Shown: one piece after another, positions 16,314-45,100 of the stretch | Numbering within the stretch: position 1 is the stretch's first letter | Layout of the letters: every line of letters begins with the position of its first letter | DNA from: a virus | Strand: one strand, 5' to 3' | DNA: 61,641 bases | Virus record (IMG/VR): IMGVR_UViG_3300020182_000008 | Span: 104,628-166,268 of that record | Program-made: the position numbers and the translations under genes | Notes under the pieces: generated by a model | Database searches by the model: none | What the model was told of the DNA's origin: nothing | The model's input: only the letters and a program-made list of their open reading frames with translations

Positions 16314-17948
16314 ATGTCAAACGTAGTAAACCAACTATTAGAGACCGCTAACCCATACAAGTCAGTACAAAAAGATGCTGCTAGACTTGCTGGAAAGTGG
16401 GACAAGTCAGGGTTACTAGAAGGAATTTCTGGTGACACTGATAAAGCTAACATGGCAATCATGTTAGAAAACCAAGCTAAACAACTTGTTGTTGAAGCAA
16501 ACCAAACTGGAACTGGCGCAAGCTTTACTCCCGGAACTGGTGAGCAGTATGCTGCAGTAGCTCTACCCCTAGTACGTAAAGTATTCGGACAAATCGCTGC
16601 TAAAGAATTTGTTTCTGTTCAACCAATGAGCCTTCCTGCTGGACTAGTATTTTATCTAGACTTCCAATACGGAACAACTCAAAAACCATTTACAGATGGT
16701 AATTCAATGTACGGTACTCCAACTGAGCACTTCGGTAACACAAACGAAGGTGGACTTTATGGAGCTGGAAGATTTGGATACTCTATCAATGAGCACACTG
16801 CTTCTGCTGCTGGTGTATTTGCTACAGCTTCTTGGGCTGACGCAAACTTTGATTCAAACTTCTCAGAATCTGTAGCTCAAGCTGCTGGATCTGATTATTT
16901 GAAAACTCTTACATTCACTACAGCTTCTATTTCTGCTGATATCGATACTGATGCAGTACGTTCATTCGTACCTTCTTCAGGATCTTGGCTAGAGGCTAAT
17001 ACTTTATCTCAATTTACTAAACTTAGTGGTGGTAACTTAGTATTTGTAGTATCTGGATCTGCTACTAACCTATTAGATGATACTATATCTGTATACTATT
17101 CTAAGAAAACTGCTGATAATGCACGTGGTGATTATGAAGATGGTTCAACACTAGCTACAACTGACCCAGCAAGAACTGAGATCTCTATCCCAGAAATTGA
17201 TGTACAGTTAAGAAGTGAAACTATTGCTGCTAAAACACGTAAGTTAAAAGCACAATGGACACCAGAATTTTCTCAAGACCTTAACGCTTTCCATTCACTA
17301 GATGCTGAAGCTGAATTGACTAATATCCTTTCAGAATACATCTCATTGGAAATCGATCTTGAAATTCTTGATATGTTAGTACAAAATGTACCTACTTCTC
17401 AAGTTGCTAACTGGTCTGCGAGAGTAGGCGAGGAAATCAACTCTGCAGGAACAGGATTCAATTCTAACACTAACGGTGTATATTATACTCAAATGAGCTG
17501 GTTCCAAACACTTGGAATTAAATTACAGAAAATCTCTAACTTGATTCACCAGAAAACTCTACGTGGTGGTGCTAACTTTATGGTAGTATCTCCAACTGTA
17601 GCAACTGTACTAGAATCAATTCCAGGATTTGCTGCTGATACTGATGGTGATGTAACTAAAGCTACTTATGCTTTCGGTGTACAGAAAATCGGTGCTTTAA
17701 ACAGCCGTTACAAAGTTTACAAGAACCCATACATGAACGAATCAACAATCTTGATGGGCTTCAGAGGAAATCAATTCCTAGAAAGTGGTGCAGTTTACGC
17801 TCCATATATTCCATTAATCATGACACCTCTAGTGTACGATCCAAATACCTTCACTCCAAGAAAAGGTATCATGACTCGTTATGCTAAGAAAATGGTACGT
17901 CCTGAATTCTATGGTAAAGTAAATGTATCTGGATTAAACGTAATCTAA
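16314..17948 (+). CDS. gp23: Major capsid protein (gp23-like)
   Basis: VSVQPMSLPAGLVFYL, AKTRKLKAQWTPE, QDLNAFH, YAPYIPL, FTPRKGIMTRY. Confidence 0.97.
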   Translation: MSNVVNQLLETANPYKSVQKDAARLAGKWDKSGLLEGISGDTDKANMAIMLENQAKQLVVEANQTGTGASFTPGTGEQYAAVALPLVRKVFGQIAAKEFVSVQPMSLPAGLVFYLDFQYGTTQKPFTDGNSMYGTPTEHFGNTNEGGLYGAGRFGYSINEHTASAAGVFATASWADANFDSNFSESVAQAAGSDYLKTLTFTTASISADIDTDAVRSFVPSSGSWLEANTLSQFTKLSGGNLVFVVSGSATNLLDDTISVYYSKKTADNARGDYEDGSTLATTDPARTEISIPEIDVQLRSETIAAKTRKLKAQWTPEFSQDLNAFHSLDAEAELTNILSEYISLEIDLEILDMLVQNVPTSQVANWSARVGEEINSAGTGFNSNTNGVYYTQMSWFQTLGIKLQKISNLIHQKTLRGGANFMVVSPTVATVLESIPGFAADTDGDVTKATYAFGVQKIGALNSRYKVYKNPYMNESTILMGFRGNQFLESGAVYAPYIPLIMTPLVYDPNTFTPRKGIMTRYAKKMVRPEFYGKVNVSGLNVI

Positions 17949-17973
17949 GACTAGATAATTTTACTTATTTAAA

Positions 17974-18002
17974 AGAACCCGCCCCGTAAGGCGGGTTTTT
18001 TT
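17974..18002 (+). terminator. Intrinsic terminator after major capsid gene
   Basis: AACCCGCC / GGCGGGTT stem followed by a T run. Confidence 0.9.
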
Positions 18003-18027
18003 ATTTTAAAATATATTTATAGTATAT

Positions 18028-18297
18028 ATGTTAATAGAAGAAGTACCATTTAAAGTCTTCCTTGAAAGGAACCCACATCTAAAGAATCGACCTATTAACG
18101 AGCAGTCGTTTCATTATCACGATTATATATCTAAATGTCAAATGCAACTAAGATATATGATAGAGTGTGGAGGTCAAGGAGCATCTTCTACTACAAGTGA
18201 GGGTGGAGGACCAGTAACTGATACTTATTTTATATTACAAGAAAACGCTGACTATGTGTTACAAGAAGATGGCGATAAACTAATTTGGACAATCTAA
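18028..18297 (+). CDS. Small virion-associated hypothetical
   Basis: C-terminal ILQEN..VLQEDG repeat; late motif upstream. Confidence 0.6.
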   Translation: MLIEEVPFKVFLERNPHLKNRPINEQSFHYHDYISKCQMQLRYMIECGGQGASSTTSEGGGPVTDTYFILQENADYVLQEDGDKLIWTI

Positions 18298-18301
18298 TAC
18301 C

Positions 18302-19369
18302 ATGGCTGACAAGAAAATAACAGAATTAAACGAACTCTCCTCAGCATCTTTAAATGACATATTTGCTGTAGTAGATATAGCTGGGAGTGAAACTAAAAAA
18401 ATTACTAACGAAAGCTATATCACAAATGTTAGAAATCACGAATCTCCTTTAACCGCCTCTGGTGTGGTAATATCAGGTGATTTAATTCCAAAATTTCCTT
18501 CTGGCTCAACTTTAGGTACAGCAGACAAACCATTCGCCGAACTATATCTACAATCAGGCTCTATCTACGTAGAATCTGATACACCTGGGGATCCACCAGC
18601 TGTTATTTCAAATGTAAGTGGTAACTTAGAGATATCAGTCGGTGGTATGTTACTAATAGAACCCGGCAACTCATTTATAGCAGATACAGGCTCATTTAAA
18701 TATCTTTCTGGTAGCTTAGAACATATTGGATCACTTATCCGATCAGGTTCAACTGATATATCAGGATCACTTACAGCATCTTTAACAAATGAACACGTTT
18801 GGATAGGAGATGAAAATAATAGAAGCACCGAAATATCGGCCTCGGCATTAGCTACCTACCTTACTTCCTCATTTGTTACACCAGAACAGACAGGCTCATT
18901 TGTTGAATCAGCTTATATATCACTTTACTCTTCAGCATCTCAACAATTAGCAGTATCTGGAGCAGCACAACCAGTTACTTTTAATAGTGTGTGGGCACAA
19001 GATGGAGTAAGTCTATCGGGGGGTTCTCAACTAGTAATGGAAAAAGCAGGGACTTATCAATTTAATTTTGTTGCTCAAGTTCAAAATACAGAAAACGCAG
19101 TACATGATTCGTACTTTTGGATAAAATACAATGGAAATAATTTTCCAAACTCAGCAACTCAAATGTCTTTACAGCCAAGAAAGAATGAAAGTACTCCATC
19201 TGCTCAATTGATGACTGTGAATATAGTAGGTGTTGCACAAAACGATGATGATTATATTGAATTATATTGGACAGGTGATAGTAATACTATACAGTTAAAT
19301 GAAACTCCAGGTAATGGAGTTAAACCAGAAACACCTTCGGTAATTGCAAACATAATAAGGGTAGGTTAA
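18302..19369 (+). CDS. Virion appendage/decoration protein with C1q/BclA-CTD-like C-terminal domain
   Basis: MADKKITEL N-motif; many SGS/TAS; ...VTFNS...AGTYQFNF...DDYIELYW. Confidence 0.6.
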   Translation: MADKKITELNELSSASLNDIFAVVDIAGSETKKITNESYITNVRNHESPLTASGVVISGDLIPKFPSGSTLGTADKPFAELYLQSGSIYVESDTPGDPPAVISNVSGNLEISVGGMLLIEPGNSFIADTGSFKYLSGSLEHIGSLIRSGSTDISGSLTASLTNEHVWIGDENNRSTEISASALATYLTSSFVTPEQTGSFVESAYISLYSSASQQLAVSGAAQPVTFNSVWAQDGVSLSGGSQLVMEKAGTYQFNFVAQVQNTENAVHDSYFWIKYNGNNFPNSATQMSLQPRKNESTPSAQLMTVNIVGVAQNDDDYIELYWTGDSNTIQLNETPGNGVKPETPSVIANIIRVG

Positions 19370-19421
19370 TATTTATATGTGAACGTTCTTTCACATGTAT
19401 TAACCCTTTAACAAACCGTTT

Positions 19422-20156: not shown

Positions 20157-20178
20157 ATATTTATAACAAAATCTAATT

Positions 20179-21330
20179 ATGTCTCAAACCCCTATTATAT
20201 GGACGGGTGCTTCCACATTCGCAGGTGGTCAAACTCCATTTGGCTTTTATGATAGTGATACTCAATTTTCTACAGATGCTGATAAAGTAGCACAATTTTG
20301 TGCTTCACGTTTAGGATATCCTACAGTTGATGTTGAAATGGGTAGTGGTTCGTTTTATGCTTGTTTTGAAGAAGCTGTAACTACATATGGTAACGAGCTT
20401 TATTTATATCAAATACGAAATAACTTTATAAATTTAGAAGCCTCTAATACAGGTTCTGAATTAAATCAATCTGTAATTAACCCTAACTTAGGAAACGTTA
20501 TTAGATTAGCTGAAAATTATGGGTCAGAGGCAGGTTCAGGTGGTAATGTAACTTGGTATTCAGGCTCAATCCCACTAACAGCATCAGTTCAAGAATACGA
20601 TTTAAATGCTTGGAAAGATACCCAAGGTATTACAGGTTCAATTGAAGTAAAACAAGTATTTTATCAAAATACTCCTGCAATTGTTAGATATTTTGATCCT
20701 TATGCTGGTACAGGATATGGATCTCAACAATTACTTGATGTATTTGGGTTTGGAAACTATTCTCCTGCAATTAACTTTTTGTTAATGCCAATCTATTATG
20801 ATATTTCTGTAATTCAAGCAATTGAACTAAATGATCAAATTAGAAAATCAGCATTCTCATTTGAATTAGTTAATAACAAATTAAGAGTATTCCCTATCCC
20901 AAACTTACCAGGACAATTATTCATTCAGTACATTAAAGTAGATGAAAGAAATGCCCCTACATCATCTAATTTCTCAGGTGGCGATATGGTAACAGACATT
21001 TCAAATGTTCCTTATGAAAACCCAACATATGAATATATCAATGCACCTGGTAGATATTGGGTATTTGAATATACTTTAGCATTAGCAAAAGAACTATTAG
21101 GATACATAAGAGGTAAATACTCTCAGGTACCAGTACCAGGAGCTGAAGTAACATTAAATCAAGCTGATTTAATTGCTGCTGCAAATACAGAAAAAGCAGC
21201 ATTAATTGAAAAACTAAGATTAGATCTAGATGAAAACTCTAGAAAAATGCAATTACAACGTAAAGCAGAAGAAGCAGATGCAATGGGCAGAACATTAGAA
21301 CAAGTTCCCCTACCAATTTATATAGCATAA
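20179..21330 (+). CDS. Neck protein (gp13-like)
   Basis: RLGYPTVDVE, WVFEYTLALAKELLG..RGKY, PGAEVTLN. Confidence 0.85.
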   Translation: MSQTPIIWTGASTFAGGQTPFGFYDSDTQFSTDADKVAQFCASRLGYPTVDVEMGSGSFYACFEEAVTTYGNELYLYQIRNNFINLEASNTGSELNQSVINPNLGNVIRLAENYGSEAGSGGNVTWYSGSIPLTASVQEYDLNAWKDTQGITGSIEVKQVFYQNTPAIVRYFDPYAGTGYGSQQLLDVFGFGNYSPAINFLLMPIYYDISVIQAIELNDQIRKSAFSFELVNNKLRVFPIPNLPGQLFIQYIKVDERNAPTSSNFSGGDMVTDISNVPYENPTYEYINAPGRYWVFEYTLALAKELLGYIRGKYSQVPVPGAEVTLNQADLIAAANTEKAALIEKLRLDLDENSRKMQLQRKAEEADAMGRTLEQVPLPIYIA

Positions 21331-21331
21331 T

Positions 21332-22729: not shown

Positions 22730-24859
22730 ATGAGCAACCATAGAAAAATAAGCACCCAAGGAATTGATAGTGGTAGTATTATCTACCCAGAACACGTTTT
22801 AAGAGCAATTGACGCCTTAAATGGTGATGCTGGACCTTATGATCTTGTTATATCTGGTTCATTAACTTCAACGGGTCCACAATTTATTTCTTCAGGTAGT
22901 TTAATTGAAAATAATAATGCTCCTGCCGCTTTAATGTATAACACCTCTTCAGGTGACATTTATTATAGTACAGGTAGTTTAGGTGGAGGAAGTGGTGTAG
23001 TAGGTACAAATGGTACCTCTGGAACCTCTGGAACCTCTGGTATAGATGGAACCTCTGGAACTTCTGGAAACACAGGTACATCTGGTACATCAGGTACAGA
23101 CGGAACTTCTGGAACAAGTGGTACAAACGGTACTTCTGGTACTTCTGGAGCAGATGGAAATTTATTTACAACAACTTCATCCACTTCAATATCAATTGCT
23201 ACAGGAGCCCAATCCCTTAATGTAGCTACAGGATTAGCTTATATTAATGGTCATGGTATATTAATAGCATCTGCAGCAAACTCAGCTAATTTTATGCTAG
23301 GTAAAGTTACAGGATACAATTCCAATACTGGTGCTATGTCCGTATCTATACAAACCATTGGTGGTAGTGGAACTTACTCAAATTGGAATGTAAGTTTAGA
23401 ATCAGCCCCTGGTACTTCTGGTACAAGCGGAACAAGCGGGACTTCAGGAACAAATGGTACTTCAGGTACAAATGGAACATCAGGTACCGATGGTAGTTCA
23501 GGTAGCTCAGGAAGTTCAGGATCAAGTGGTACATCAGGTACATCAGGTACTAGTGGTACTTACTCAGGTACTTCAAGTACATCTTTAGCAATTGGAACTG
23601 GATCTACTTCATTAACCGTAGAAACTGGTTTATCATTTGCTGCAGGACAATCAGTAATAATCCAAGAAAATGGAAATACTGCTAATTATATGATTGGTAA
23701 AGTCACCACATATAATAGCGGAACAGGTGCCTTAACAGTTAACATTACAAGTACAGGAGGAACCGGAACAATTTCATCTTGGACAATAGAATTAGGTTCA
23801 GGAGATGGTACTTCAGGTACATCTGGTTCTTCAGGAAATTCAGGAACATCCGGCACTTCAGGTACAAACGGTACTTCAGGAACAGATGGTTCATCAGGTA
23901 CTAGTGGAGAAAATGGAACTAACGGAACTAGTGGTACTTCAGGAACAAACGGAACATCTGGTACAAATGGTACAGATGGCACTTCAGGAACAAATGGTAC
24001 TTCTGGTACAGACGGGACTTCAGGAACAACACCTGAAGCACAATTTACAGGATCATATACTGGTTCATTTACAGGAGATGGTACAGGTTTAACCGGCGTG
24101 GCTTCATCCACAGGTTCTTATACAGGATCATTTACAGGTAGTATATTAGTAGACGATGCTTCTGGTTCATTTAGTGGATCATTTGAAGGAGATGGATCTA
24201 ATTTAACAGGACTTGTAGCTGGTATAAGTACAATATATAACACACAAGTAAGATACGAGGCATTAAACGCTGGAAACAGTGGTGCTGATGGTAGAGTAGA
24301 AATTTTATCTACAGGTACTGTATATGGTGGTTTAACTTGGTCTAGATCAGGTACTACCCTAACTATTACAAAAACTAATCATGGTTTATCCACAGGAGAT
24401 TATATTGTAATAAGAAACATGAATTCAGATTATACTTATGTTTCTGTAACAGCAACTAATTCTAATACATTAACTTGTACTGTAGCCGATAGTGGAGGAA
24501 CATCTGGAACTGAAGGAGCGTATGTACCCGCATTTAAAGCAAGTTCATATACACAAAACGGTGTAACCATTACATCACCTAATACCGGAGATTGCCAAGT
24601 AGATTCTATTCAAATTACTACACCTACTAAAACAAACAGTAACTTTAATTTGATAATGCCTAGTTCAGTATCAAATGGTGCTGGTGGTAATAATAGTTTA
24701 TACTATCAAAACCCTCCATTAATACAAGTATGGGCTTTAAGTAATGGTAACCAAAATTCATCCGCAGTAATAACATTAAATACTTCAAGTAATTTTAATC
24801 AATTTGAAGTAGGTGGTTTAGCATCACTTGTAAAAAGTTTAATTAGATTAACATTCTAG
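22730..24859 (+). CDS. Collagen-like (Gly-Thr-Ser)n fibre protein
   Basis: Three GTS triplet blocks separated by two similar ~80-aa beta modules. Confidence 0.8.
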
Positions 24860-24860
24860 A

Positions 24861-26813
24861 ATGGCATATAGAGACCAACCATTTATAGGTGCAGTTAGTG
24901 CCGATAGCATATTAAAAGAAAACTTTATAATTGCTACTGGTAATTTTGCTAGTGCTTCTAACCAAATTGCTGATTTTAGTGTTTCATCTGGTGATGAAAA
25001 TTTATTAAGAGTAGGTCAAACTATTTACTCTGTAGGAGGTGCTGTTCCTACAAGTGCTACTATTACAAACATAAATGGTAGTTTAATTACTTTAGACACC
25101 CCATCAGTTGGAACTATTACGTCGGATACAATTGGTATATCTCTACCCTCAGGATCTTATTTATTTCAATCTGCTTCTTTTACTGATCCTAATAATGAAA
25201 TTACTGTAGGAGATATTACAGGTAGTAACACTGATCCCTCATATGATTATGCTATTTTAGGTGTAGCTAAACGAAATAATGCTACTAGAAAAGGTGTATT
25301 TCATATCTATAAAATTTCTGAAGTAGTACAAACTAATATAGGTGGTTCTGAATTATCATTTTTTGTAGAATGGGGAGAAGAAGGAACCGAAGCTGATTCA
25401 GGAGATATTTTACAAACTTCTGAAGAAACTGTTGCAATTGTAAATTTAACCGATTCAGGTTCAATAGCACCTGGATTTTCAAGAGCAATTGCTGGTTTAG
25501 AAAATATTAAAGATGGCTCAGAATATGCTGGATTTAATGTAGCAATATCCCAATATCTATCTGATATATCAGGTTCATCAGGAGGTACTTCAGCAACAGG
25601 TTCATTTACAGGATCATTTACAGGTTCAATTTTAGGAGATGTTTTAGGTACTGCTTCTATAGCAGATTTTGCTACTACTGCTTCTTATATATCAACTGCT
25701 AGTTTTTCAGATAGTGCTACAAGTGCTTCATATGCTGAAACCTCATCTATCCAATACGATTCAGGTTCAGGTACTATTACAGGATTAGACGAGATAAAAA
25801 TTAATGATTTTGATGATAACGTAGGTGTTACATTTCAAGATAGTAAATTAACACTAACATTTGGCTCACCAACTGTACCTTCTATCTCAAGTTTTTTTAA
25901 TAGTGGGTTTGATACAAATAGATTTAATTTAGTAGAAGACGATTCTACTGTTACTGCTAACTGGAGTAATGGTGGTTATACTTTTTTAAGTGCTTCTATC
26001 TACACAGGAAGTATAGAATTAACTCATAGTTTAGATGCTGGTGATACTAATTTAACATTAGCTTTAACTACATCAGGTTCACAAAGGTATTTCTTATATT
26101 ATACTGCTTCAAGTCCCTTAGACAATACAGAATATTACTTATCACAAACTTTAACTAGTAACTTAAGTAAAACAAACCCAACGAATCCATCAATATCACC
26201 TACCCCAGCAGTACAATTAGGTGCTTCATCTAATCAAATAGAACAAGGGGGTACAGGTAGTATAGCATTTACAAGTGCATACGGAAGTTCAAATGGATGG
26301 GATCAAGTATCATTAGTAAATACCCCAGTTGCAACACCTTTAGAAGTAACAGGTTCAGCTACTGGTTCAAATAGTTTAAGTATTCAAGCAGTAGCAAGTT
26401 ATGAATCACCCGATGGAGATAATAATCCACAATTAACTACGAATAGAACAGCAACAACTACCTATAGTAAAATACGTAGTGTAAGATATGGTGCTTCAGC
26501 AACAACAGCATTTACACAAACTCAATACGAAGATTTAGGAGCTTGGGATACAACATTAGGAGGAAATATAGGTACTATAGATAAAGGTAACACTTCCCCA
26601 TCAGGAGATAGTTTAACTATTACTTGGAGTGGAGATAAATACCATTATATAGTATATGATAGTAATAGAAGTGATTTAACTAATATTTCTACAGGAGGAT
26701 TTGGAGTAATAGGACAGTTTACTAAAACTACAGTAGGAGACTATACAGTATATAGAACTAATGACTTACAAGCAGGAGGTGGTAGTACTAGTATAACCTA
26801 TGATTTAACATAA
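24861..26813 (+). CDS. Ser/Thr-rich virion structural protein
   Basis: TGSF/SAS/TAS motifs; located in the fibre cluster. Confidence 0.7.
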   Translation: MAYRDQPFIGAVSADSILKENFIIATGNFASASNQIADFSVSSGDENLLRVGQTIYSVGGAVPTSATITNINGSLITLDTPSVGTITSDTIGISLPSGSYLFQSASFTDPNNEITVGDITGSNTDPSYDYAILGVAKRNNATRKGVFHIYKISEVVQTNIGGSELSFFVEWGEEGTEADSGDILQTSEETVAIVNLTDSGSIAPGFSRAIAGLENIKDGSEYAGFNVAISQYLSDISGSSGGTSATGSFTGSFTGSILGDVLGTASIADFATTASYISTASFSDSATSASYAETSSIQYDSGSGTITGLDEIKINDFDDNVGVTFQDSKLTLTFGSPTVPSISSFFNSGFDTNRFNLVEDDSTVTANWSNGGYTFLSASIYTGSIELTHSLDAGDTNLTLALTTSGSQRYFLYYTASSPLDNTEYYLSQTLTSNLSKTNPTNPSISPTPAVQLGASSNQIEQGGTGSIAFTSAYGSSNGWDQVSLVNTPVATPLEVTGSATGSNSLSIQAVASYESPDGDNNPQLTTNRTATTTYSKIRSVRYGASATTAFTQTQYEDLGAWDTTLGGNIGTIDKGNTSPSGDSLTITWSGDKYHYIVYDSNRSDLTNISTGGFGVIGQFTKTTVGDYTVYRTNDLQAGGGSTSITYDLT

Positions 26814-26823
26814 TATATAGCAG

Positions 26824-27693
26824 ATGGCAATTACTTTACCTGGTGGCTTTAGGATAACGAATAACGAAGCAGTTGATTCTAGAATAAGTGTAGCTGACCA
26901 ATCAGCACGTTTAGGATTTTCTGCTGCTAACGTATATGAAGGTTTACTTGTTTATCAACAAGATACAGATGAAATATACGTTTTAACTGATACTTCCGAT
27001 CCTACAGATAATGATAATTGGAAAAAGATATATCCTGTAGCATCAATGACAGGATCATTTAGTGGATCATTTACTGGTTCATTTGATGGTTTAATAGATA
27101 GTGCTTCATTTGCTGAAACAGCATCTTACGCTATGTATGCTGTATCTGCTTCACATGAAATAGTTCACGAAACATCCTCTTCATTTGCTGAAACAGCTTC
27201 ATTTGCACAAGGTGGAGATGGTGAATTTACTGGTTCCTTTACTGGTTCCTTTTCAGGTTCAAACTATTCTACAGACTTTACATTTGATGGTGATACTTTA
27301 ATTGTATCAGGTAACGTGTTTGTAGATGGAACATTAGATGCTGCAACTAAAAACTTTAAAATACAACACCCTACAATGGAAGGGTATTATCTACTCCACT
27401 CATCATTAGAAGGACCTGAACGTGGAATTTACCATAGAGGTAAATTAAGTGTCAGTAATATTATCCACTTACCAGACTATTGGAAAGAATTACCTGTAGA
27501 TGATACTGATATTACAGTACAACTTACTCCAATTGGTAATGCTTGCCATCATTGGGTTAAAAGAGTTACTAAAGAAGAAATTGAAATAGAATGTGAGTGT
27601 GGTAAACCAAGTTGTTTTTATATTGTACATGCCCAACGTTATAATGAGGGTAAATTTGAAATATTAGAACCAAAACGCAACAAAAGCTTGTAA
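26824..27693 (+). CDS. Fibre/appendage protein with chaperone-like C-terminal domain
   Basis: TGSFSGSF repeats; KNFKIQHP...HSSLEGPE...LPDYW...VQLTP. Confidence 0.7.
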   Translation: MAITLPGGFRITNNEAVDSRISVADQSARLGFSAANVYEGLLVYQQDTDEIYVLTDTSDPTDNDNWKKIYPVASMTGSFSGSFTGSFDGLIDSASFAETASYAMYAVSASHEIVHETSSSFAETASFAQGGDGEFTGSFTGSFSGSNYSTDFTFDGDTLIVSGNVFVDGTLDAATKNFKIQHPTMEGYYLLHSSLEGPERGIYHRGKLSVSNIIHLPDYWKELPVDDTDITVQLTPIGNACHHWVKRVTKEEIEIECECGKPSCFYIVHAQRYNEGKFEILEPKRNKSL

Positions 27694-27718
27694 AATGTAC
27701 TAAAGGTTATTATATTAA
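27688..27718 (+). promoter_or_regulatory. Host-type promoter TTG-N20-TATATTAA upstream of the glycosyltransferase
   Basis: TTG at 27688, TATATTAA at 27711. Confidence 0.6.
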
Positions 27719-32175: not shown

Positions 32176-32549
32176 TGGCTAAAAATGTAAGAATAGTTCC
32201 CGCCTCCGGTTCTATTTACTTTACAGCTGATGGATATGATATAACCGGATCTGTAGTATTAAGAACATTAGGAGATACCGAAGATTTGGAATTCTCCACT
32301 GGAGGAGACCAACCTGCATTACTTATATCTAAAGAATCAGGCAGAATTGGAGTAGGAACAGTTTCTTCATCAGCAAAATTAGAAGTTTCTTCTTCAGTAG
32401 ATGAAGATCTTTTACTTATAAAAAATGCAAGTGGTAGTATTAAAGTAAACCAAGAAGGTGTACTAGTACTATCCCCCTATCAAGGAGAAGTAACCGCGGT
32501 AAGTGGTGCACTTATATATAGTGCTTCTAATCTCTTTGTAGGTGGTTAA
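32175..32549 (+). CDS. Small fibre-associated protein
   Basis: GRIGVGT..SAKLEV trimeric fibre motif. Confidence 0.7.
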   Translation: MAKNVRIVPASGSIYFTADGYDITGSVVLRTLGDTEDLEFSTGGDQPALLISKESGRIGVGTVSSSAKLEVSSSVDEDLLLIKNASGSIKVNQEGVLVLSPYQGEVTAVSGALIYSASNLFVGG

Positions 32550-32601
32550 ATATTTATAGTAGATTAATATCATAATAACCCTTAATTAAAAACAATATAC
32601 A

Positions 32602-35600
32602 ATGGCAGAATGGAAAAAGATAGTCGTCTCTGGTAGCGACATATCCCAATTAAACAACGACAGCGGATATTTAGTTGCTGGTGGAACAATCGATTCCGCT
32701 TCAGTCGCTGATAGAGCTACCTTACTATCCCCAGATGCCACAGCATCTTTTGCTGATAGTGCTTCCTTTGCTCGAATGGCCCTCGAAGGATCTGGATCTT
32801 TCAGTGGTTCATTTGAAGGAGATGGATCAGGATTAACAGGATTAGCAACAAACTTAACAGTTGATGGTGATACCGGTACACAAGATGTAGATCTTATTAC
32901 AGATGATTTACAAATTCTTGGTACTACAAACGAAATTGAAACTGCTGTAACTAAAGTTGGTAACGATGTAAAAGTTACACTTGGTTTACCTGATAATATT
33001 ACAGTAACAGCTTCCTTTGCTGATTTAGCAGGAACTGTTCATGATGGTAATATTACAACTGCAAAACTTGCAGATGGTGCCGTAACAACAGCTAAGATTA
33101 CTGATGCTAACATTACTACCGCAAAAATTGCGGATGCTAATGTAACAGATGCCAAATTAGCCTCAGATTCAGTAACAACTGTAAAAATTGTAGATGCTAA
33201 CGTAACAGCTGCTAAATTAGCAACTGATTCTGTTGAAACTGCCAAAATTGTTGATGCAAACGTAACAACTGCAAAACTTGCAGATGACGCTGTAACAACA
33301 GTAAAAATTACAGATGCAAATGTTACCGCAGCCAAATTAGCAACAAACTCTGTTGAAACAGCTAAGATTGTAGACGGTAATGTAACAACAGCTAAAATTG
33401 CAGATGCAAACGTAACAGATGCTAAACTAGCTTCTAACTCTGTAACAACTGATAAAATTGTAGACGCTAATGTTACTACAGGTAAATTAGCAGATAGTGC
33501 CGTTACAACAGCTAAAATCAATGATGGTGCTGTAACAAATGACAAAATTACAGATGGTACAATTGCCAACGTAAAATTAGTAAATGATAGTGTTACACTA
33601 GGTAGCACAGAAATAGATTTAGGACAAACTGTAACTGAAATTTCTGGATTAACCAGTATTTCTGCTACAACTGGTAGCTTCGTATTACAAGTATTCGAAT
33701 CCTCTTCTACAATTATTACCTCTGGTTCAAACATCTTTGGTGATAAACAAGACGATATACAACAAATTACAGGTTCATTAAAACAATCTGGTAGTTTTAC
33801 ACTCTCAGGTAGTTTACTTCAATCAAACGGTGTAATTAGTGGTTCATTCCAAGGTGACGGTTCAGGATTAACTGGAGTTACTGTAGATACACTAAATAAT
33901 GCTCTTACGGATGGTAATGGTATTACAGACTTTACATTTGATGGTTCAGCTACTGCAACAGTAGCAGTAGAAGCAGATGGAGCTACTTTAACAGTAGGTG
34001 CCAATGGAGTTAAAGTTTCAGACAGTGGAATTGATACTACTCAATTAGCTGATGATGCTGTAACGACAGTTAAAATCACTGACGCAAATGTAACAACTGC
34101 AAAAATTGCAGATTCTAATGTTACTACTGCTAAAATTGCAGATTCTAATGTTACTACTGCTAAAATAGCTGATTTAAACGTAACTACAGAAAAACTCGCA
34201 GCTAATGCAGTAACTACTGCTAAAATTACAGACGCAAATGTAACAGCTGCTAAATTAGCAACCAACTCAGTAGAAACTGCAAAAATTGTAGACGCTAACG
34301 TTACAACAGCTAAAATTGCTGATGCCAATGTTACTACAGGTAAACTTGCAGACAATGCTGTAACAACAGCTAAAATTACAGATGCAAACGTTACTGCGGC
34401 TAAACTTGCAAGCAATTCAGTTGAAACTGCAAAAATTGTAGACGCTAACGTAACAGCTGCTAAATTAGCAACGGATTCAGTTGAAACAGCTAAAATCGTA
34501 GACGGTAATGTTACCACTGCAAAACTTGCAGACGATGCTGTAACTACAATTAAGATTACAGACGCTAATGTTACTGCAGCTAAATTAGCTACAGATTCAG
34601 TTGAAACAGCAAAAATTGTTGATGCAAATGTAACAACTGCAAAAATTGCAGATAGTGCTGTAACAACAGCTAAAATCGCTGATGGTGATGTAACAAATGC
34701 TAAATTAGCTAACGATAGTGTAATATTAGGTACTACAGAAATTGATTTAGGTCAAACTGTAACAGAAATCTCAGGATTAACTAGTATTTCAGCTGTAACA
34801 GGTAGCTTTGTATTACAGGTTTACGAATCCTCTTCTACGATTATTACTTCAGGATCAAACATCTTTGGTAATGATCAAAACGATATTCAACAAGTAACAG
34901 GATCATTAAAACAATCAGGAAGTTATACACTTTCAGGAAGCTTATTACAATCAAACGGTGTAATTAGCGGTTCATTTATTGGTGATGGTTCAGGATTAAC
35001 AGGAGTTGCTGTAGATCAATTAAATAATTCTCTTACAGACGGAAATGGTATTGCAGATTTCACATTCGATGGAAGTGGTGCTGCTACTGTAGCTGTTGAA
35101 GCAGATGGATCTACCTTAACAGTAGGTGCTAGTGGTGTAAAAGTTTCTGATGCAGGAATTGACACTACTCAATTAGCCGACAATGCTGTAACAACTGCTA
35201 AAATTACCGACTTAAATGTAACAACTGGTAAACTTGCAGACGGTGCAGTAACAACAGCAAAAATCACTGATGCTAACGTTACAACAGCTAAAATTGCTGA
35301 TGCTAACGTTACAACAGCTAAAATTGCTGATGCAAATGTAACAGTTGACAAATTAGCAACTGATTCAGTAACTACAGCTAAAATTGTAGATGCCAATGTT
35401 ACAACTGCCAAAATTGCAGACGCTAACGTTACTACAGGTAAATTAGCTGATGATGCTGTAACGACAGTTAAAATCACAGATGCAAACGTAACAGCTGCTA
35501 AATTAGCAACAGATTCTGTTGAAACAGCTAAGATCGTTGATGCAAATGTTACTACTGCCAAACTCGCTGACAATGCCGTAACAACGGTTAAAATCACTGA

Positions 35601-37449
35601 TGCTAACGTAACTACCGCAAAAATTGCTGATAGTAATGTTACAACTGCAAAAATTGCAGATAGTGCAGTAACAAACGATAAAATTACAGACGGTACGATT
35701 GCTAATGCTAAATTAGTAAACGATAGTCTTACATTTGGTGTAACAGAACAAGCACTTGGTTCAACTATAACAGAAATTAAAGGTTTAACTTTAATTAGTG
35801 CTGATACAGGTACATTTGTTCACCAAATTTTCGAATCCTCTTCTACAATTATTACTTCCGGATCAAACGTATTTGGTAATGATGCAGGAGATATTCAACA
35901 AATTACTGGTTCATTAAAACAATCAGGTAGTATTACATTATCTGGTAGTTTATTACAATCACATGGTGTAATTAGTGGTTCATTTATTGGAGATGGTTCA
36001 GGATTAACTGGATTAGCTACAATATTAACCATTGATGGTGATTCAGGAGGTACCTCAACAGTAGATTTACAAACACAAAATCTAGATATTGCTGGTACAG
36101 CAAACGAAATTGAAACTTCAGTTTCAGGTCAAACTATTACTATTGGTTTACCTACTAATATTACAGTAACAGCTTCATATGCTGATACAGCAAGTATTGC
36201 TAGAACTGCAGATTCAGCTTCAAACTCAACAAATGCTATTTCAGCCTCAGCTACAGTAGCGGGTCAATTATTCCCAACAACAGAGGGATTAAATGGTCAA
36301 GCTCTTGTAACAGATGGTGCTGGTCAATTAATATATGCTGATGCATTCGGAACTGGTTCAACTAAGAAATTAAACCAAACCGTAGCAGCAGAAACTTGGT
36401 CGTTTGTTCACAATTTAGATGAAGAATATCCTATAGTACAAATTTGGGATACTACTGGAGATATGATTCTTCCAGACAGAATTGTAACTATAAATGCCAA
36501 TACTGTTGAAATTATATTCCCTGTGCCTGTTGCCGGTATCGCCGCTGCAATGGTAGGTGGAATGGGAATTTCAGCTTCTGAAGCAACCCATGCTCAAACA
36601 GCCTCAGTCGCTGATCGTGCTACAGAATTAAGCGTAGATGCAACAGCTTCATTTGCTGATGTAGCAGGAACAGTTCACGCTGGTAATATTACTACTACTG
36701 AATTAGCTGATAATGCAGTAACAAATGCTAAAATTACAGATGGTACAATTGCCAACGTAAAATTAGTAAATGATAGTGTTATTCTTGGTACAACAGAAGT
36801 AGATTTAGGTGCCACTTCAACCACTTTAGTAGGATTAACTAACGTAGAAAGTACTATGTTCAGTGGTTCCTTCAAAGGTGATGGTTCCTTATTAACTGGA
36901 TTAGTAACAGAATTAGATATTGCTGGTGATACAGGTACAGATGCTTTAGATCTTAAAGTTGATACATTAAATGTAGTCGGTACTACTGGTGAAATTGAAA
37001 CCGCTGTAACAAATAATCAAATTCAAATTGGATTACCTAGTAACGTAACAGTTGGAAACGACTTAACTGTAACAGGTGATGCAACTATTGCTGGAGATTT
37101 AGTAGTAGGTGGTGCTATAGTAAGTGCTTCTTCGTTGGAAGTTGCAGATCAATTTATTATATTAGCATCCGGTTCAAATGGTGCGATTGATGGTGGTATC
37201 ATTATTAATCAAGTCGATGATGATCCAGATGGTAGAGGTAAAGCATTTGCTTACGATTCTAGTGCAAACAGATGGGCATTACAATCAGAATTGGTTGATT
37301 CTGCCACAACAATTACACCAGATGCGTATATGGGTGTTATTCAAGAAAGTGCAGGTGCTCCAAGTTCCGATCCAACATATGGTGGAACAAATGGTAAAGG
37401 TACGATTTTTGTAGATACCTCAAATAACGAAGCTTATATTTACATATAA
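32602..37449 (+). CDS. Giant repetitive fibre protein (1615 aa)
   Basis: Arrays of decapeptide VT(T/A)AK(I/L)xDxx separated by three ~100-aa modules. Confidence 0.85.
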   Translation: MAEWKKIVVSGSDISQLNNDSGYLVAGGTIDSASVADRATLLSPDATASFADSASFARMALEGSGSFSGSFEGDGSGLTGLATNLTVDGDTGTQDVDLITDDLQILGTTNEIETAVTKVGNDVKVTLGLPDNITVTASFADLAGTVHDGNITTAKLADGAVTTAKITDANITTAKIADANVTDAKLASDSVTTVKIVDANVTAAKLATDSVETAKIVDANVTTAKLADDAVTTVKITDANVTAAKLATNSVETAKIVDGNVTTAKIADANVTDAKLASNSVTTDKIVDANVTTGKLADSAVTTAKINDGAVTNDKITDGTIANVKLVNDSVTLGSTEIDLGQTVTEISGLTSISATTGSFVLQVFESSSTIITSGSNIFGDKQDDIQQITGSLKQSGSFTLSGSLLQSNGVISGSFQGDGSGLTGVTVDTLNNALTDGNGITDFTFDGSATATVAVEADGATLTVGANGVKVSDSGIDTTQLADDAVTTVKITDANVTTAKIADSNVTTAKIADSNVTTAKIADLNVTTEKLAANAVTTAKITDANVTAAKLATNSVETAKIVDANVTTAKIADANVTTGKLADNAVTTAKITDANVTAAKLASNSVETAKIVDANVTAAKLATDSVETAKIVDGNVTTAKLADDAVTTIKITDANVTAAKLATDSVETAKIVDANVTTAKIADSAVTTAKIADGDVTNAKLANDSVILGTTEIDLGQTVTEISGLTSISAVTGSFVLQVYESSSTIITSGSNIFGNDQNDIQQVTGSLKQSGSYTLSGSLLQSNGVISGSFIGDGSGLTGVAVDQLNNSLTDGNGIADFTFDGSGAATVAVEADGSTLTVGASGVKVSDAGIDTTQLADNAVTTAKITDLNVTTGKLADGAVTTAKITDANVTTAKIADANVTTAKIADANVTVDKLATDSVTTAKIVDANVTTAKIADANVTTGKLADDAVTTVKITDANVTAAKLATDSVETAKIVDANVTTAKLADNAVTTVKITDANVTTAKIADSNVTTAKIADSAVTNDKITDGTIANAKLVNDSLTFGVTEQALGSTITEIKGLTLISADTGTFVHQIFESSSTIITSGSNVFGNDAGDIQQITGSLKQSGSITLSGSLLQSHGVISGSFIGDGSGLTGLATILTIDGDSGGTSTVDLQTQNLDIAGTANEIETSVSGQTITIGLPTNITVTASYADTASIARTADSASNSTNAISASATVAGQLFPTTEGLNGQALVTDGAGQLIYADAFGTGSTKKLNQTVAAETWSFVHNLDEEYPIVQIWDTTGDMILPDRIVTINANTVEIIFPVPVAGIAAAMVGGMGISASEATHAQTASVADRATELSVDATASFADVAGTVHAGNITTTELADNAVTNAKITDGTIANVKLVNDSVILGTTEVDLGATSTTLVGLTNVESTMFSGSFKGDGSLLTGLVTELDIAGDTGTDALDLKVDTLNVVGTTGEIETAVTNNQIQIGLPSNVTVGNDLTVTGDATIAGDLVVGGAIVSASSLEVADQFIILASGSNGAIDGGIIINQVDDDPDGRGKAFAYDSSANRWALQSELVDSATTITPDAYMGVIQESAGAPSSDPTYGGTNGKGTIFVDTSNNEAYIYI
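33043..35720 (+). repeat. Three arrays of 30-nt/10-aa VTTAKIADAN-type repeats
   Basis: Approximately 33043-33590, 34041-34715 and 35170-35720. Confidence 0.9.
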
Positions 37450-37455
37450 TAGACA

Positions 37456-37695
37456 ATGTTTAAAAAAGTTATGGGATTATTAGATAAAATCAGAGAAAAG
37501 GAAGCTGCCCAGGAGGCGGCTTCCTCTGTCTCTAAAAAAGAAAAAAAGACTTCTAAAGAAGATTTATCATTAAATGCTGAAGAAACAAAAATTCTTTTAC
37601 ATTTAATTAAAAATTCAAATTTTAAAGGAGAAAGTGTAGAATTAGTATACAATCTTACTTTAAAACTCCAAAAAGTTCTAAATATTTTAGGTTAA
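37456..37695 (+). CDS. Small hypothetical (possible fibre assembly factor)
   Basis: 79-aa ORF directly after the giant fibre gene. Confidence 0.6.
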   Translation: MFKKVMGLLDKIREKEAAQEAASSVSKKEKKTSKEDLSLNAEETKILLHLIKNSNFKGESVELVYNLTLKLQKVLNILG

Positions 37696-37718
37696 ATAAT
37701 ATATATTTATACTAGAGC

Positions 37719-37770
37719 ATTATTGGCCCGAAAGGGAAGTGGGCATCCTATGATGTAACCAACCGTAATA
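37719..37770 (+). ncRNA. Candidate structured cis-regulatory RNA in a 5' UTR
   Basis: CCC-GAAA-GGG hairpin, GCATC/GATGT hairpin, closing stem ATTA(T)TGG/CCGTAAT; GC-rich island in an AT-rich spacer. Confidence 0.45.
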
Positions 37771-37778
37771 GAGTATAT

Positions 37779-38585
37779 ATGCCAAACTGGAAAAAAATAG
37801 TCGTTGGAGATTCCAACGCATCCTTAGCGTCACTTAATATAAGTGGTAATTTAACTGCATCCGCAGCATACCTAGAATCTGCCTCAATTGGTCATTTACA
37901 GACCATATACGAGACAGCTTCCGTTATTTATAGTTCAGGCTCAACCAAATTTGGTGATACATCCGATGATACTCATGAATACACCGGTTCTCTTTCAATA
38001 TCAGGTTCAATATCAATTGTTGAAGGAGCCCAATTAACAGGTACTTCAAGTTTTGCTATAACAGCATCGCATGCCCTAAACGTACCTGACACGGCTTCCC
38101 ACGCTTTAACAGCGGTAACAGCCTCACACACATCAGGTACTGCCTCATTCGCAAATAACGCTACTACATCGTCTTATACGCTAACTGGTGACGGGGTGTT
38201 TAGTGGTTCATTTAGTGGATCATTTCAAGGAAATGCAGCCGAACTAAATGTAATCCCCTTCCCGTTCACTGGTTCAGGTGAAATGCAAGGTGATTTAACA
38301 GTTCACTCTTTACAAGATTATACTGACGAAGATTACGTAGAAAGTTATTTCGCAGGTACCGCAATATACTCAGATGGAGATATAGCATTAACAGGTAGTA
38401 TTTTTAGTGCTTATATTAATGCAAATACCTTTACAGGATCATTCTTAAATGATACAGGATATGTTGTGTTAACACAAGTATCTCAAAGTTTAAACTTTAC
38501 TGACGATTCTGCTGCACAAGCTGGTGGGGTGCCGTTAGGAGGATTGTATAGAAACGGAAATACCATACAAATTAGAATAAGTTAA
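37779..38585 (+). CDS. Fibre-associated protein, N-terminus paralogous to the giant fibre
   Basis: MPNWKKIVV vs MAEWKKIVV; shares the SSGSTKFGD..D.H..TGS module. Confidence 0.75.
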   Translation: MPNWKKIVVGDSNASLASLNISGNLTASAAYLESASIGHLQTIYETASVIYSSGSTKFGDTSDDTHEYTGSLSISGSISIVEGAQLTGTSSFAITASHALNVPDTASHALTAVTASHTSGTASFANNATTSSYTLTGDGVFSGSFSGSFQGNAAELNVIPFPFTGSGEMQGDLTVHSLQDYTDEDYVESYFAGTAIYSDGDIALTGSIFSAYINANTFTGSFLNDTGYVVLTQVSQSLNFTDDSAAQAGGVPLGGLYRNGNTIQIRIS

Positions 38586-38609
38586 CAATATTTATAATAT
38601 ATAATAGAC

Positions 38610-38918
38610 ATGCCAAACGGAAGTTTAACATTACGCTCAGGATTAGGTAGAAAATTAACTACCGGAGAAATGGATGATAACTTAATATTTTTAAGTGCAT
38701 CCTATTCTCATCGCCAAGATTTATTAGATAGTACAGGATCATACGTTGTATCACATTCATTAAATGAAAATTATCCTGTAGTAACAGTATGGGATACTGG
38801 TAGTGGAGGAGTTAATCCTGAAGTAGTATTACCTAATAGCATAATTTCAAACAATACCAATACTATAACAGTAAATTTTGGTGAGCCTTTTAATGGACAT
38901 ATTATAATTAAAGTATAA
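38610..38918 (+). CDS. Small virion protein
   Basis: LT..EMDDN; H.L.E.YP.V.VWD module shared with the giant fibre. Confidence 0.7.
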   Translation: MPNGSLTLRSGLGRKLTTGEMDDNLIFLSASYSHRQDLLDSTGSYVVSHSLNENYPVVTVWDTGSGGVNPEVVLPNSIISNNTNTITVNFGEPFNGHIIIKV

Positions 38919-38987
38919 GTTTTAAATAAAACTCAATATTTATCATCGATTAAAACAACATAATAACCCCCTAAGAAAAAATAAAAT

Positions 38988-41732: not shown

Positions 41733-41748
41733 AATAAATTTATAAAAA

Positions 41749-42174: not shown

Positions 42175-42193
42175 TAAATAAAACTAAAATAAA

Positions 42194-42958: not shown

Positions 42959-42977
42959 TTTATTAAATAGTAAAAAT

Positions 42978-43003
42978 AGGGAACGCTTGCGTTCCCTTTT
43001 TTT
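42978..43003 (+). terminator. Intrinsic terminator ending the fibre cluster
   Basis: AGGGAACGC / GCGTTCCCT inverted repeat followed by a T run. Confidence 0.88.
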
Positions 43004-43054
43004 GTTCTCGTATATATTTTAAATATTTATATTAAATAATTAATTAAATTCGTT

Positions 43055-43312
43055 ATGGCAATAAAACAAACAAAGGTAACAGAGGAGGAATTAAAGGAAC
43101 TAGAAAACTTTCAACAAAACATTAACGTTATAACATACCAATTAGGACAGTTAGCGTTAAGAAAGTTAAATTTAGAAAAAGAAGAAGAAAATTTGGAAAT
43201 ACGATATGACCAAATACTTCTACAAGAAAAAGAATTGGGCGATCGTTTAAAAGAAAAATATGGTAGTGCCCAAATCGATTTAAAAACAGGTGAGATCATA
43301 CAATCGGAATAA
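43055..43312 (+). CDS. Small coiled-coil protein
   Basis: Heptads; C-terminal KYG...IDLKTGE. Confidence 0.7.
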   Translation: MAIKQTKVTEEELKELENFQQNINVITYQLGQLALRKLNLEKEEENLEIRYDQILLQEKELGDRLKEKYGSAQIDLKTGEIIQSE

Positions 43313-43363
43313 TGTTTTTGAACTCCCCTTACATATTTATCATTGATAAAATAACTAATAACA

Positions 43364-45100
43364 ATGGCTGAAACTTTATTATCCCCAGGAGTATTAACAC
43401 GTGAGAACGATCAATCACTAGTTACTCAAGGACCTATTGTTGCAGGTTTGGCTTTAGTAGGCCCAACTGTAAAAGGACCTGTTAATGTTCCAACAGTAGT
43501 TACTTCATATAGTGACTTCAAAAATAAATTTGGTGGTGCATTCGAAAGTGCTAGTATTCGATATGAATATTTAACTTCAATCGCTGTAAACAATTACTTC
43601 CAACAAGGTGGTGAGACTGCTTTAATAACTAGAGTTGCATCTGGTTCTTACACTCCCTCAACCGCTGACGTTAGAGCAATTATGCATGCTGATTCTTCTT
43701 CATTCACATTAGAGACAATTTCTCAAGGTGAAATCATGAACAACTCAGGTAGTGTATCTACAAGTGGTTCATTAGTAAGTGGTTCAGGTGATAACGTACG
43801 TTGGGAAATTGCAGGAATTGATTCAGGAAGTGGTACGTTTAATCTACTAGTTCGTGGTGGAAATGACAATTCTAAATCAAAAACAATATTAGAAAGCTGG
43901 AATGATTTATCATTAGATCCAAATTCAGACAACTATATCGAAGCTGTAATTGGTAACCAAACAAGAAACTTCGATACCGATAGTGATGGTAATCAATTTA
44001 TCCAAACAACTGGATCTTACGTTAATAACAGCCGTTACGTAAGAGTATCTTCAGTAGGGTTACCAACATTAAACTACTTAGATAACGACGGAAACTTTAA
44101 AGCAGAATACACTTCATCTCTACCACAAGTAGGAAGTGGATCTTTAGAAGGAGCATTTGCAAATGGTACTGGTAAAATTTATGGAGATGGTGCTAATGCA
44201 AACACTAGATTAAAAATGTTTGATGAAATTGATGTTTCATCTATCCAAGGTCTAGAACCATCTCACTATACAGCCTCACTAGCTCTTCTACAAAATCAAG
44301 ACGAATACGATTATGAAATCTTATCTATTCCCGGTGTAACAATTCAAAACGGATTAGTTGCTGTAAATACAGCGATTGATACGGTTACAGAAAGAGGAGA
44401 TGCGATTGCCGTAGTTGATACAAGAAATTATGGTTCAACACTTAACCAAGCCGTAACTTCCGCTGGAGCTGTTGATTCAAGCTACGCTGCTACATACTGG
44501 CCTTGGGTTCAAGTACAATCAGGTGAAACTGGAAAACTAGTTTGGGCACCTGCTTCTACAGTAATTCCTGGAGTATATGCTACTAACGATAGATTAGGAG
44601 CTGAATGGTTCGCACCTGCTGGATTTAACAGAGGTGGTGTAGGTGGTGTAATCCAAGCTGAAAGAAAATTATCACCAGCTGATCGTGATAAACTGTATTT
44701 AGCTAAAGTTAACCCATTAGCTACATTCCCAGGAAATGGAACAGTAGCATTTGGACAGAAAACATTACAAACTAAAGCAACTGCCTTAGATAGAGTAAAT
44801 GTAAGAAGATTGTTAATTGAATTGAAACGTACTATTGGAAACATTGGTAAAACGTTACTATTCGAACAAAACACAGCTGCAACTAGAAATAGATTTTTAT
44901 CACAAGTTAACCCATATCTAGAATCAATACAACAACGTCAAGGATTGTACACTTATAGAGTGGTAATGGATGATACAAACAACACAGCTGATGTGATTGA
45001 CAGAAATCAAATGGTAGGACAAATATTCATCCAACCAACTAAAACAGCTGAATATATAATCTTAGACTTTAATGTAACGCCTACTGGTGTAACATTCTAA
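43364..45100 (+). CDS. gp18: Tail sheath protein (gp18-like)
   Basis: SPGV...E.D, YAATYWPW, WFAPAGFNRG, FGQKTL, DRVNVRRL. Confidence 0.96.
   Translation: MAETLLSPGVLTRENDQSLVTQGPIVAGLALVGPTVKGPVNVPTVVTSYSDFKNKFGGAFESASIRYEYLTSIAVNNYFQQGGETALITRVASGSYTPSTADVRAIMHADSSSFTLETISQGEIMNNSGSVSTSGSLVSGSGDNVRWEIAGIDSGSGTFNLLVRGGNDNSKSKTILESWNDLSLDPNSDNYIEAVIGNQTRNFDTDSDGNQFIQTTGSYVNNSRYVRVSSVGLPTLNYLDNDGNFKAEYTSSLPQVGSGSLEGAFANGTGKIYGDGANANTRLKMFDEIDVSSIQGLEPSHYTASLALLQNQDEYDYEILSIPGVTIQNGLVAVNTAIDTVTERGDAIAVVDTRNYGSTLNQAVTSAGAVDSSYAATYWPWVQVQSGETGKLVWAPASTVIPGVYATNDRLGAEWFAPAGFNRGGVGGVIQAERKLSPADRDKLYLAKVNPLATFPGNGTVAFGQKTLQTKATALDRVNVRRLLIELKRTIGNIGKTLLFEQNTAATRNRFLSQVNPYLESIQQRQGLYTYRVVMDDTNNTADVIDRNQMVGQIFIQPTKTAEYIILDFNVTPTGVTF

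Follow-up and report, generated by a model that had tools for sequence, protein, structure and literature searches.

The glycosyltransferase gene and its setting

We analyzed a window of 61,641 nucleotides (nt) that forms the final 61.6 kb of a complete 166,268-bp viral record (IMG/VR record IMGVR_UViG_3300020182_000008, positions 104,628 to 166,268), with emphasis on a gene for a bifunctional glycosyltransferase of 767 amino acids (aa; 27724..30027) that lies within a cluster of tail fiber genes. Positions refer to the window unless they are given as genome positions, and all of the window features described are on the + strand. The source is a marine T4-like phage of Flavobacteria, whose capsid protein, sheath, and neck protein resemble gp23, gp18, and head-completion proteins. 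Its closest cultured relative is Flavobacterium phage vB_FspM_immuto (immuto; 58% identity in the capsid protein, 55% in the sheath, and 46% in the neck protein), with Microcystis phage Mel-JY01 and LR756508, an uncultured huge phage, ranking next. Upstream of the enzyme gene are the gene for the tail fiber fibA709 (22730..24859), which has three proline-free collagen-like runs, and those for fibB650 and p289 (24861..27693), fiber-cluster proteins rich in TGSF/SGSF/TASF repeats. The gene for a further tail fiber with collagen-like runs, fibC702 (30067..32175), follows directly downstream and starts 40 nt past the end of the enzyme gene. No autotransporter gene was seen in the window; the neighbors of the enzyme are phage tail fibers.

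The first-pass annotation had proposed, from motifs in the sequence, that this open reading frame fuses a GT4 domain to an Aah/TibC-like one, and profile searches bore this out for both halves. The GT4 (Glycos_transf_1) domain (27748..28878; aa 9-385) was recovered with Pfam PF00534 (aa 175-305; 47.9 bits against a cut-off of 26.4) and phrog_2170 (aa 9-385; E = 2e-38), contains an intact E-x7-E motif (EGWNLPLIE, aa 274-282), and has distant similarity to glycosyltransferases encoded by phages of Streptomyces and Rhodococcus. The second domain (28924..30012; aa 401-763), of the TibC/Aah (BAHT, bacterial autotransporter heptosyltransferase) type, matched the NCBIfam model TIGR04414 over aa 401-763 with 319.6 bits (cut-off, 200), and aa 421-762 aligned with the TibC structures (PDB codes 4rb4 and 4rap; E = 6e-55). 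By family membership, it is a real Aah/TibC-family protein O-glycosyltransferase.

Transferring the residues named in the TibC structure paper (PMC4358343) through the PDB alignment, we found the active site to be largely preserved. Asp485 (codon 29176..29178), the last residue of the SLGD motif (aa 482-485), corresponds to Asp110, the catalytic base of TibC (PMC4358343). Lys606 and Ser602 occupy the positions of the beta-phosphate contacts Lys230 and Thr226, the latter a conservative change, and Trp685 corresponds to the sugar contact Trp305. The predicted four-Cys iron finger (CxxC-x13-C-x11-C) lies exactly at 29881..29970, where the earlier reading had placed it, and its residues C720, C723, C737, and C749 correspond to C339, C342, C358, and C370 of TibC. 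We examined conservation in 240 homologues, comprising 120 long or fused forms and 120 stand-alone phage forms. The Asp485 position holds Asp in 238 of them, the remaining 2 being gapped, and the catalytic Asp, Lys, Trp, and Ser/Thr and all four Cys are kept in at least 114 of the 120 sequences of each set, which argues for purifying selection on catalysis.

Departing from the family, Ile666 (codon 29719..29721) stands at the position of TibC Arg286, which contacts N1 of the adenine and whose replacement in R286A abolishes or largely diminishes activity (PMC4358343). This position is Ile in 80 of the 120 long or fused forms and Arg in 104 of the 120 stand-alone forms, suggesting that the donor nucleotide may not be ADP. 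At the Pro300 position, which governs stereoselectivity in TibC, the enzyme has Ser680, the same residue as AAH, and the stand-alone phage homologues have Gly. The Ile and Ser at these two positions hint at a clade-specific donor specificity. As judged from these residues, the TibC-like domain looks catalytically alive, with a donor nucleotide that may differ from ADP.

A promoter-like site, TTGTAA-17-TATATT, lies upstream of the enzyme gene (27688-27716). Sites of the sigma-70 type number 33 between 22 and 33 kb, against 51.7 in shuffled sequences, in a scan that covers the sigma-70 type and not the promoter type of the host; this deficit means that the site carries no weight as a promoter of the enzyme's own.

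Collagen-like fibers accompany the enzyme across phage lineages

The collagen-like runs of fibA709 span aa 86-145, 228-278, and 360-434 (nt 22985-23164, 23411-23563, and 23807-24031) and consist of 20, 17, and 25 triplets, mostly GTS, with Ser at the Y position in 40 of the 62. Those of fibC702 span aa 86-151 and 266-283 (nt 30322-30519 and 30862-30915), with 22 and 6 triplets and Ser at Y in 22 of the 28. Both fibers thus have the long uninterrupted Gly-X-Y runs of collagen-like proteins. The enrichment of X and Y in proline and hydroxyproline that also characterizes such proteins is absent (1 Pro in 90 triplets), so that a collagen-like helix formed by these runs would need another source of stability. 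A degenerate DNA pattern for five consecutive Gly-[ST]-x triplets gave 31 matches in the 166-kb genome, all of them in fibA709 and fibC702, and the reversed pattern used as a control gave 0. There was no match to the pattern in the complete genomes of immuto (160 kb) and LR756508 (484 kb), both of which are free of the enzyme.

Thousands of phage sequences from marine and fresh waters encode members of the TibC-like family (2418 clusters of long and 1133 of short proteins), which annotation pipelines label "autotransporter strand-loop-strand O-heptosyltransferase." In all of the 37 loci that we retrieved by means of the TibC-like domain, the gene is found within the late structural operon. It occupies one of two places: the fiber cluster, in relatives 76-90% identical, or a site directly upstream of the genes for p85, sheath, and tube, in relatives about 40% identical. 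In other uncultured myophages with stand-alone forms of 400 aa, the order is GT1, GT1-like, TibC-like, one unnamed gene, and then an 83-aa protein, the counterpart of p85, which precedes the sheath and tube. The p85 gene itself (43055..43312) is a conserved gene of 83-85 aa immediately upstream of the sheath gene; in relatives 40-90% identical, it always lies between the glycosyltransferase module and the sheath gene. Across the relatives, the partner to which the TibC-like domain is fused, or next to which it lies, is a GT4, GT2, or GT34 domain or a TylF/CmcI/FkbM-type methyltransferase. Such variety is expected of interchangeable second-step tailoring and fits an enzyme that primes and then extends.

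In every lineage with sufficient flanking sequence, a proline-free GTS/GSS collagen-like protein is encoded 0.2-5.5 kb from the TibC-like gene (Mel-JY01 and lineages L013-21, L022, L023, L026, L129, L130/131, L142, L160, and L176). The enzymes of these lineages are 36-52% identical to the 767-aa enzyme and differ in their fusion partners. Ser occupies Y in 60-88% of their triplets, which number up to 574 in the jumbo-phage group L013-21. From the opposite direction, a TibC-like gene was present in 12 of 45 IMG/VR records bearing eight Gly-[ST]-x triplets and in 0 of 43 with Gly-x-Pro repeats (Fisher P = 2e-4), the records being mostly fragments and chosen without phylogenetic independence. Among the Gly-[ST]-x records that are at least 90% complete, it was present in three of five. 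What accompanies the enzyme from lineage to lineage is the collagen-like (Gly-Thr/Ser-Ser)n repeat of its neighboring fibers, which the first-pass annotation had not singled out. One further record, G025 (the record behind locus L163; 148 kb, 84% complete), encodes 543 collagen-like triplets and has no TibC-like gene in its assembled part.

A serine-specific tripeptide in virion proteins

The first-pass annotation had further described an [S/T]-[G/A/S]-S motif as crowding the surface proteins of the particle. We therefore surveyed the genes concerned and compared [ST][GAS]S counts with those in whole-protein shuffles and then in shuffles within blocks of 10 or 20 residues. PHROGs assigns a major head protein, PhoH, a neck/adaptor protein, a tail fiber series, sheath, and tube to the 16.3- to 45.6-kb region; it leaves p355, fibB650, p268, and all five proteins of a cluster at 81-95 kb of the genome (see below) without a family. 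The excess claimed for the neck or head-completion protein (20179..21330), the tail sheath (43364..45100), and the protein encoded at 18302, p355 (18302..19369), was evident, with 6 sites against 0.9 expected (z = 5.5), 11 against 2.5 (z = 5.5), and 13 against 3.0 (z = 5.9), respectively. p355 is encoded near the major capsid gene and may be a candidate capsid decoration protein; its slot varies in relatives: L003 lacks it, and in L004, L007, and immuto it holds different Ser/Thr-rich proteins. For the gp23-like major capsid protein (16314..17948), the clustering was as described (five sites, all at aa 162-249), and the enrichment proved weak (5 against 2.0, z = 2.3; z = 2.3-3.0 over the shuffles).

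The saturation asserted for the fibers likewise held in part. It was found in fibB650 (z = 5.1), p289 (9.2), and fibC702 (7.9) and in the downstream fiber-cluster proteins p124 (4.8), fibD1615 (9.5), p268 (7.2), and p102 (3.6), encoded at 32175..38918. fibA709, being collagen-like, is itself rich in Gly, Ser, and Thr, and its motif count does not exceed what this composition predicts (z = 0.4). The excess persists in the block shuffles and is therefore not a matter of local composition. It is absent from the enzyme (0 sites), the terminase, the portal, the tape measure, the 609-aa and 1101-aa baseplate proteins, fibE914, and p254, and there was no over-representation in inner baseplate, tape measure, packaging, or replication proteins, as the earlier reading had held for most of these classes. 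The 95 nonstructural open reading frames have 16 sites against 19.2 expected, and the remaining 122 of the first 104 kb have 18 against 21.7.

The signal is specific in form. SGS is enriched 8.4-fold, TGS 5.7-fold, TAS 5.4-fold, and SAS 4.2-fold; SGT, TGT, TAT, GSS, GTS, SSG, SGG, and NGS occur at about the expected frequency or below it. The motif is directional and is usually followed by F, I, L, Y, or V. In the unselected set of structural proteins, [ST][GA]S is enriched 4.52-fold and [ST][GA]T 1.06-fold, indicating that Ser is needed at position 3. In the nonstructural proteins of the same phage, the corresponding values are 0.84 and 0.93. Outside the window, the motif is concentrated in a tail fiber (genome positions 508-2157) and in the cluster at 81.5-95 kb. 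The latter (L377; genome positions 81,478-94,979, 23 kb before the window start) encodes five large proteins with a scattered, nonrepetitive [ST][GA]S excess, among them a 1786-aa protein (31 sites against 3.9) and a 1083-aa protein (32 against 3.7) that has no relative in the phage collection. Its counterpart in immuto adjoins the baseplate wedge genes.

In the sheath, whose predicted model (pLDDT [predicted local distance difference test], 83.8) was confirmed as a sheath fold by a fold search, the 11 sites all lie at aa 62-305, outside the core common to distant sheaths. Relatives at 55% identity retain about 9 of them. When mapped on the secondary structure of the model, 8 of the 11 are in or at loops flanked by beta-strands; this placement would fit the idea of a BAHT strand-loop-strand acceptor, yet Gly/Ser turns sit in such loops anyway.

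We then asked whether the motif follows the enzyme. In unselected sets of structural proteins from four genomes, the carriers of a TibC-like gene have a Ser-specific enrichment (this phage, as above; Mel-JY01, [ST][GA]S 3.14-fold and [ST][GA]T 0.91-fold), compared with values of 2.32 and 1.87 in immuto and 1.70 and 1.34 in LR756508, both of which lack the gene. This gradient between the Ser and Thr forms within the clade fits the Ser-only specificity of TibC/AAH. The sheaths of seven distant cultured phages with enzyme-free genomes likewise have no specific excess (1.63-fold for the Ser form against 1.55-fold for the Thr form). Against the expectation that enzyme-free relatives would lack the motif, immuto keeps it, in a weaker form that has lost its Ser specificity, in its sheath (z = 3.3) and fibers and is also enriched in hyp215 (17 sites against 3.0) and the baseplate cluster (35 against 10.8). 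The explanation that its [ST][GA]T excess reflects Ser-to-Thr drift at ancestral sites was rejected, as nine conserved sheath sites show no replacement by Thr.

The wider co-occurrence also failed. In 89 sheaths of the lineage, the Ser form is enriched 4.72-fold with a TibC-like gene on the contig and 4.31-fold without one, and 137 wider sheath representatives gave 3.12-fold, likewise Ser specific. The layout in which p291 is followed directly by the sheath cannot be taken as the mark of an enzyme-free genome, since Mel-JY01 has it and carries the enzyme 24 kb away. Two complete or nearly complete TibC-positive jumbo phages, G032 (0.94-fold for the Ser form and 2.28-fold for the Thr form) and G044 (1.18 and 1.21), have no enrichment, and a third further TibC-positive phage, G010, has a modest motif signal. 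G025, with no TibC-like gene in the assembled 84%, has values of 2.93 and 1.16, and five of its proteins have 218 [ST][GA]S sites against 38 expected, with no excess of the Thr form. A link between motif and enzyme thus fits within the clade, fails more widely, and is not supported. The Ser-specific tripeptide itself is a real signal in the sheath and baseplate proteins.

Candidate acceptors, the donor sugar, and known systems

Starting from the observed domain identities, conserved residues, gene position and synteny, and cross-lineage co-occurrence with the repeat, we infer that the enzyme most likely glycosylates the phage's own fibers fibA709 and fibC702 in two steps, a reading that we hold to be on balance probable. 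Acting in the cytoplasm as a protein O-glycosyltransferase, it would have tail fibers of the same phage as substrates, with the TibC/Aah-like domain placing a first sugar on Ser hydroxyls and the fused GT4 domain then extending it. The main targets, by analogy with BAHTs, would be the Ser residues at Y of the (Gly-Thr/Ser-Ser)n segments. BAHTs are cytoplasmic enzymes whose substrates, repetitive surface proteins, are encoded nearby (PMC4358343, PMC8151025), the two genes usually being neighbors, and the mapped acceptor sites of TibA are QNSGG and NTSAA, in which only Ser is modified (PMC4358343). The T-S-G context in GTS repeats resembles these sites. BclA-type collagen-like proteins are glycosylated (PMC8968730, PMC7157674), and a glycan on the present fibers would stabilize and hydrate a putative triple helix devoid of both proline and hydroxyproline, besides decorating the surface of the fiber.

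Several points weigh against fiber glycosylation. BAHT substrates so far have been beta-helices, not collagen-like helices. The enzyme has Ile666 where TibC requires an Arg for activity. A collagen-like repeat is missing from the contigs of the TibC-positive clade L024-L038, which are up to 41 kb long and cover only 4.4 kb upstream of the enzyme, and the IMG/VR comparison is subject to the composition of its record sets given above. Finally, the phage genome has no GmhA-type (SIS_2) isomerase gene for the first enzyme of heptose synthesis. Given this absence and the loss of the Arg286 equivalent, heptose as the sugar is unproven, and the donor need not be ADP-heptose. The phage NTP-transferase is fused to a HAD domain of the beta-phosphoglucomutase type, not the GmhB type, and with the isomerase missing as well, we found no evidence that the phage makes heptose itself. 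This fusion belongs to a sugar/sulfate cassette (L125; genome positions 40,600-48,100) that also encodes adenosine 5'-phosphosulfate (APS) kinase, a small cytidylyltransferase-like protein, an NAD-dependent epimerase, and a GT2. Two further GT4 genes lie at genome positions 26.8-28.6 kb; immuto shares the GT4 pair and GT2 genes and has no TibC-like gene.

The first-pass annotation had instead taken the motif, considered here as [S/T]-[G/A]-S, for a particle-wide sequon at which the TibC-like domain would prime Ser and the GT4 domain would extend the sugar, so that the whole virion, fibers included, would be coated in glycan. Its scheme of priming and extending is compatible with the varied partner domains and with the demand for Ser, which agrees with the Ser-only specificity of TibC/AAH (PMC4358343); what lacks support is the tie between motif and enzyme on which it depends. 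The sharp definition of the motif, the contrast between enzyme carriers and enzyme-free genomes in the clade, the lack of a specific excess in the seven distant sheaths, and the conserved sheath sites at strand-flanked loops outside the shared core all favor a sequon, whereas its persistence in immuto and in lineage sheaths irrespective of TibC, its absence from G032 and G044, and its presence in G025 do not. Moreover, the mapped TibA sites put Ser first, followed by two G/A residues, an arrangement unlike the motif, and the TGSF/TASF arrays of the fibers may be mere structural repeats. We regard a particle-wide sequon as possible but unproven and as rather unlikely. A more far-reaching version appears slightly less probable still: in this lineage, the Ser-specific sequon would mark >250 sites in sheath, neck, outer-baseplate, capsid-associated, and fiber proteins, the fused BAHT-GT4 enzyme would O-glycosylate them in the cytoplasm, the sugar-nucleotide and PAPS (3'-phosphoadenosine 5'-phosphosulfate) genes of the phage may supply the pathway and sulfate the glycan, so that the virion would bear a glycan coat that is perhaps sulfated, and the motif in immuto would be the relic of a system since lost.

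Another reading moves the acceptor to the host, the enzyme acting on adhesins or the envelope, for instance in a block of superinfection or an altered cell surface, and its position in the fiber cluster being incidental. All of the known BAHT substrates are indeed bacterial surface adhesins (PMC4358343, PMC8151025), and elsewhere the phage has envelope-directed and sugar/sulfate genes (the epimerase, HAD/NTP-transferase, GT2, two GT4s, and APS kinase listed above). We nevertheless consider this improbable, as the gene keeps its place in the structural operon, in the fiber cluster or upstream of p85, sheath, and tube, across lineages 40-90% identical, and the enzyme tracks phage-encoded collagen-like fiber genes. 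It is more improbable still that the TibC-like domain is no transferase at all, serving as a scaffold or chaperone in fiber assembly, or that it has a nonprotein acceptor. The Ile in place of an Arg that TibC needs could be read as a mark of such a change, and the conservation of the catalytic and iron-finger residues in both homologue sets, together with the intact E-x7-E of the GT4 half, speaks against it.

To our knowledge, the TibC/Aah family is known only as a modifier of virulence factors in Proteobacteria, and experimentally known phage-encoded virion glycosylation is confined to a few actinobacteriophages. In mycobacteriophages, Freeman et al. (2023, Cell Host Microbe; cited in PMC12801897 and PMC11256854) reportedly found that phage glycosyltransferases modify the phages' own structural proteins; those systems are said to concern capsid and tail-tube proteins of actinobacteriophages, with no TibC-like enzyme and no collagen-like acceptor. 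Neither BAHT-like enzymes of phages nor glycosylated phage fibers of the Gly-Thr-Ser kind were the subject of any paper returned by our literature search, which also yielded nothing on Mel-JY01 or on collagen-like tail fibers with O-glycosylation.

The systems closest to the present one are the TibC-TibA and Aah-AIDA-I pairs of Escherichia coli (PDB codes 4rap and 4rb4; PMC4358343). The catalytic domain is homologous, with the Asp, Lys, Trp, and four-Cys finger alike, and by analogy the enzyme here, whose gene likewise lies beside that of a repetitive surface protein, would also be cytoplasmic and have many Ser residues as targets. A ring-shaped dodecamer and the transfer of heptose from ADP-heptose to Ser of the substrate are traits of the BAHT/TIGR04414 family on the TibC side. 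Unlike TibC and Aah, the present enzyme is phage encoded and fused to GT4, has Ile for the adenine-contacting Arg286, and neighbors collagen-like Gly-Thr/Ser-Ser tail fibers rather than beta-helical autotransporters. On the acceptor side, BclA of Bacillus anthracis/cereus and BclA3 with SgtA of Clostridioides difficile similarly pair a hydroxyl-rich Gly-X-Y surface filament with a dedicated O-glycosyltransferase, the sugar being thought to aid hydration and stability (PMC8968730, PMC7157674). Proline is part of their repeats (GPT), Thr is the residue that bears the sugar, and their enzymes are unrelated to BAHT, whereas the repeats described here are proline free, phage borne, and have Ser at Y.

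This case adds the context of a T4-like phage of Flavobacteria and the Ser-specific tripeptide signal. Proline-free collagen-like fiber repeats are hard to explain without a stabilizing modification, and if the fibers are glycosylated as proposed, this would explain the folding of Gly-Thr-Ser "collagens" and provide a rule for recognizing glycosylated phage fibers from sequence. It would also bear on how abundant aquatic phages recognize their hosts, how stable their particles are, and how readily they stick.

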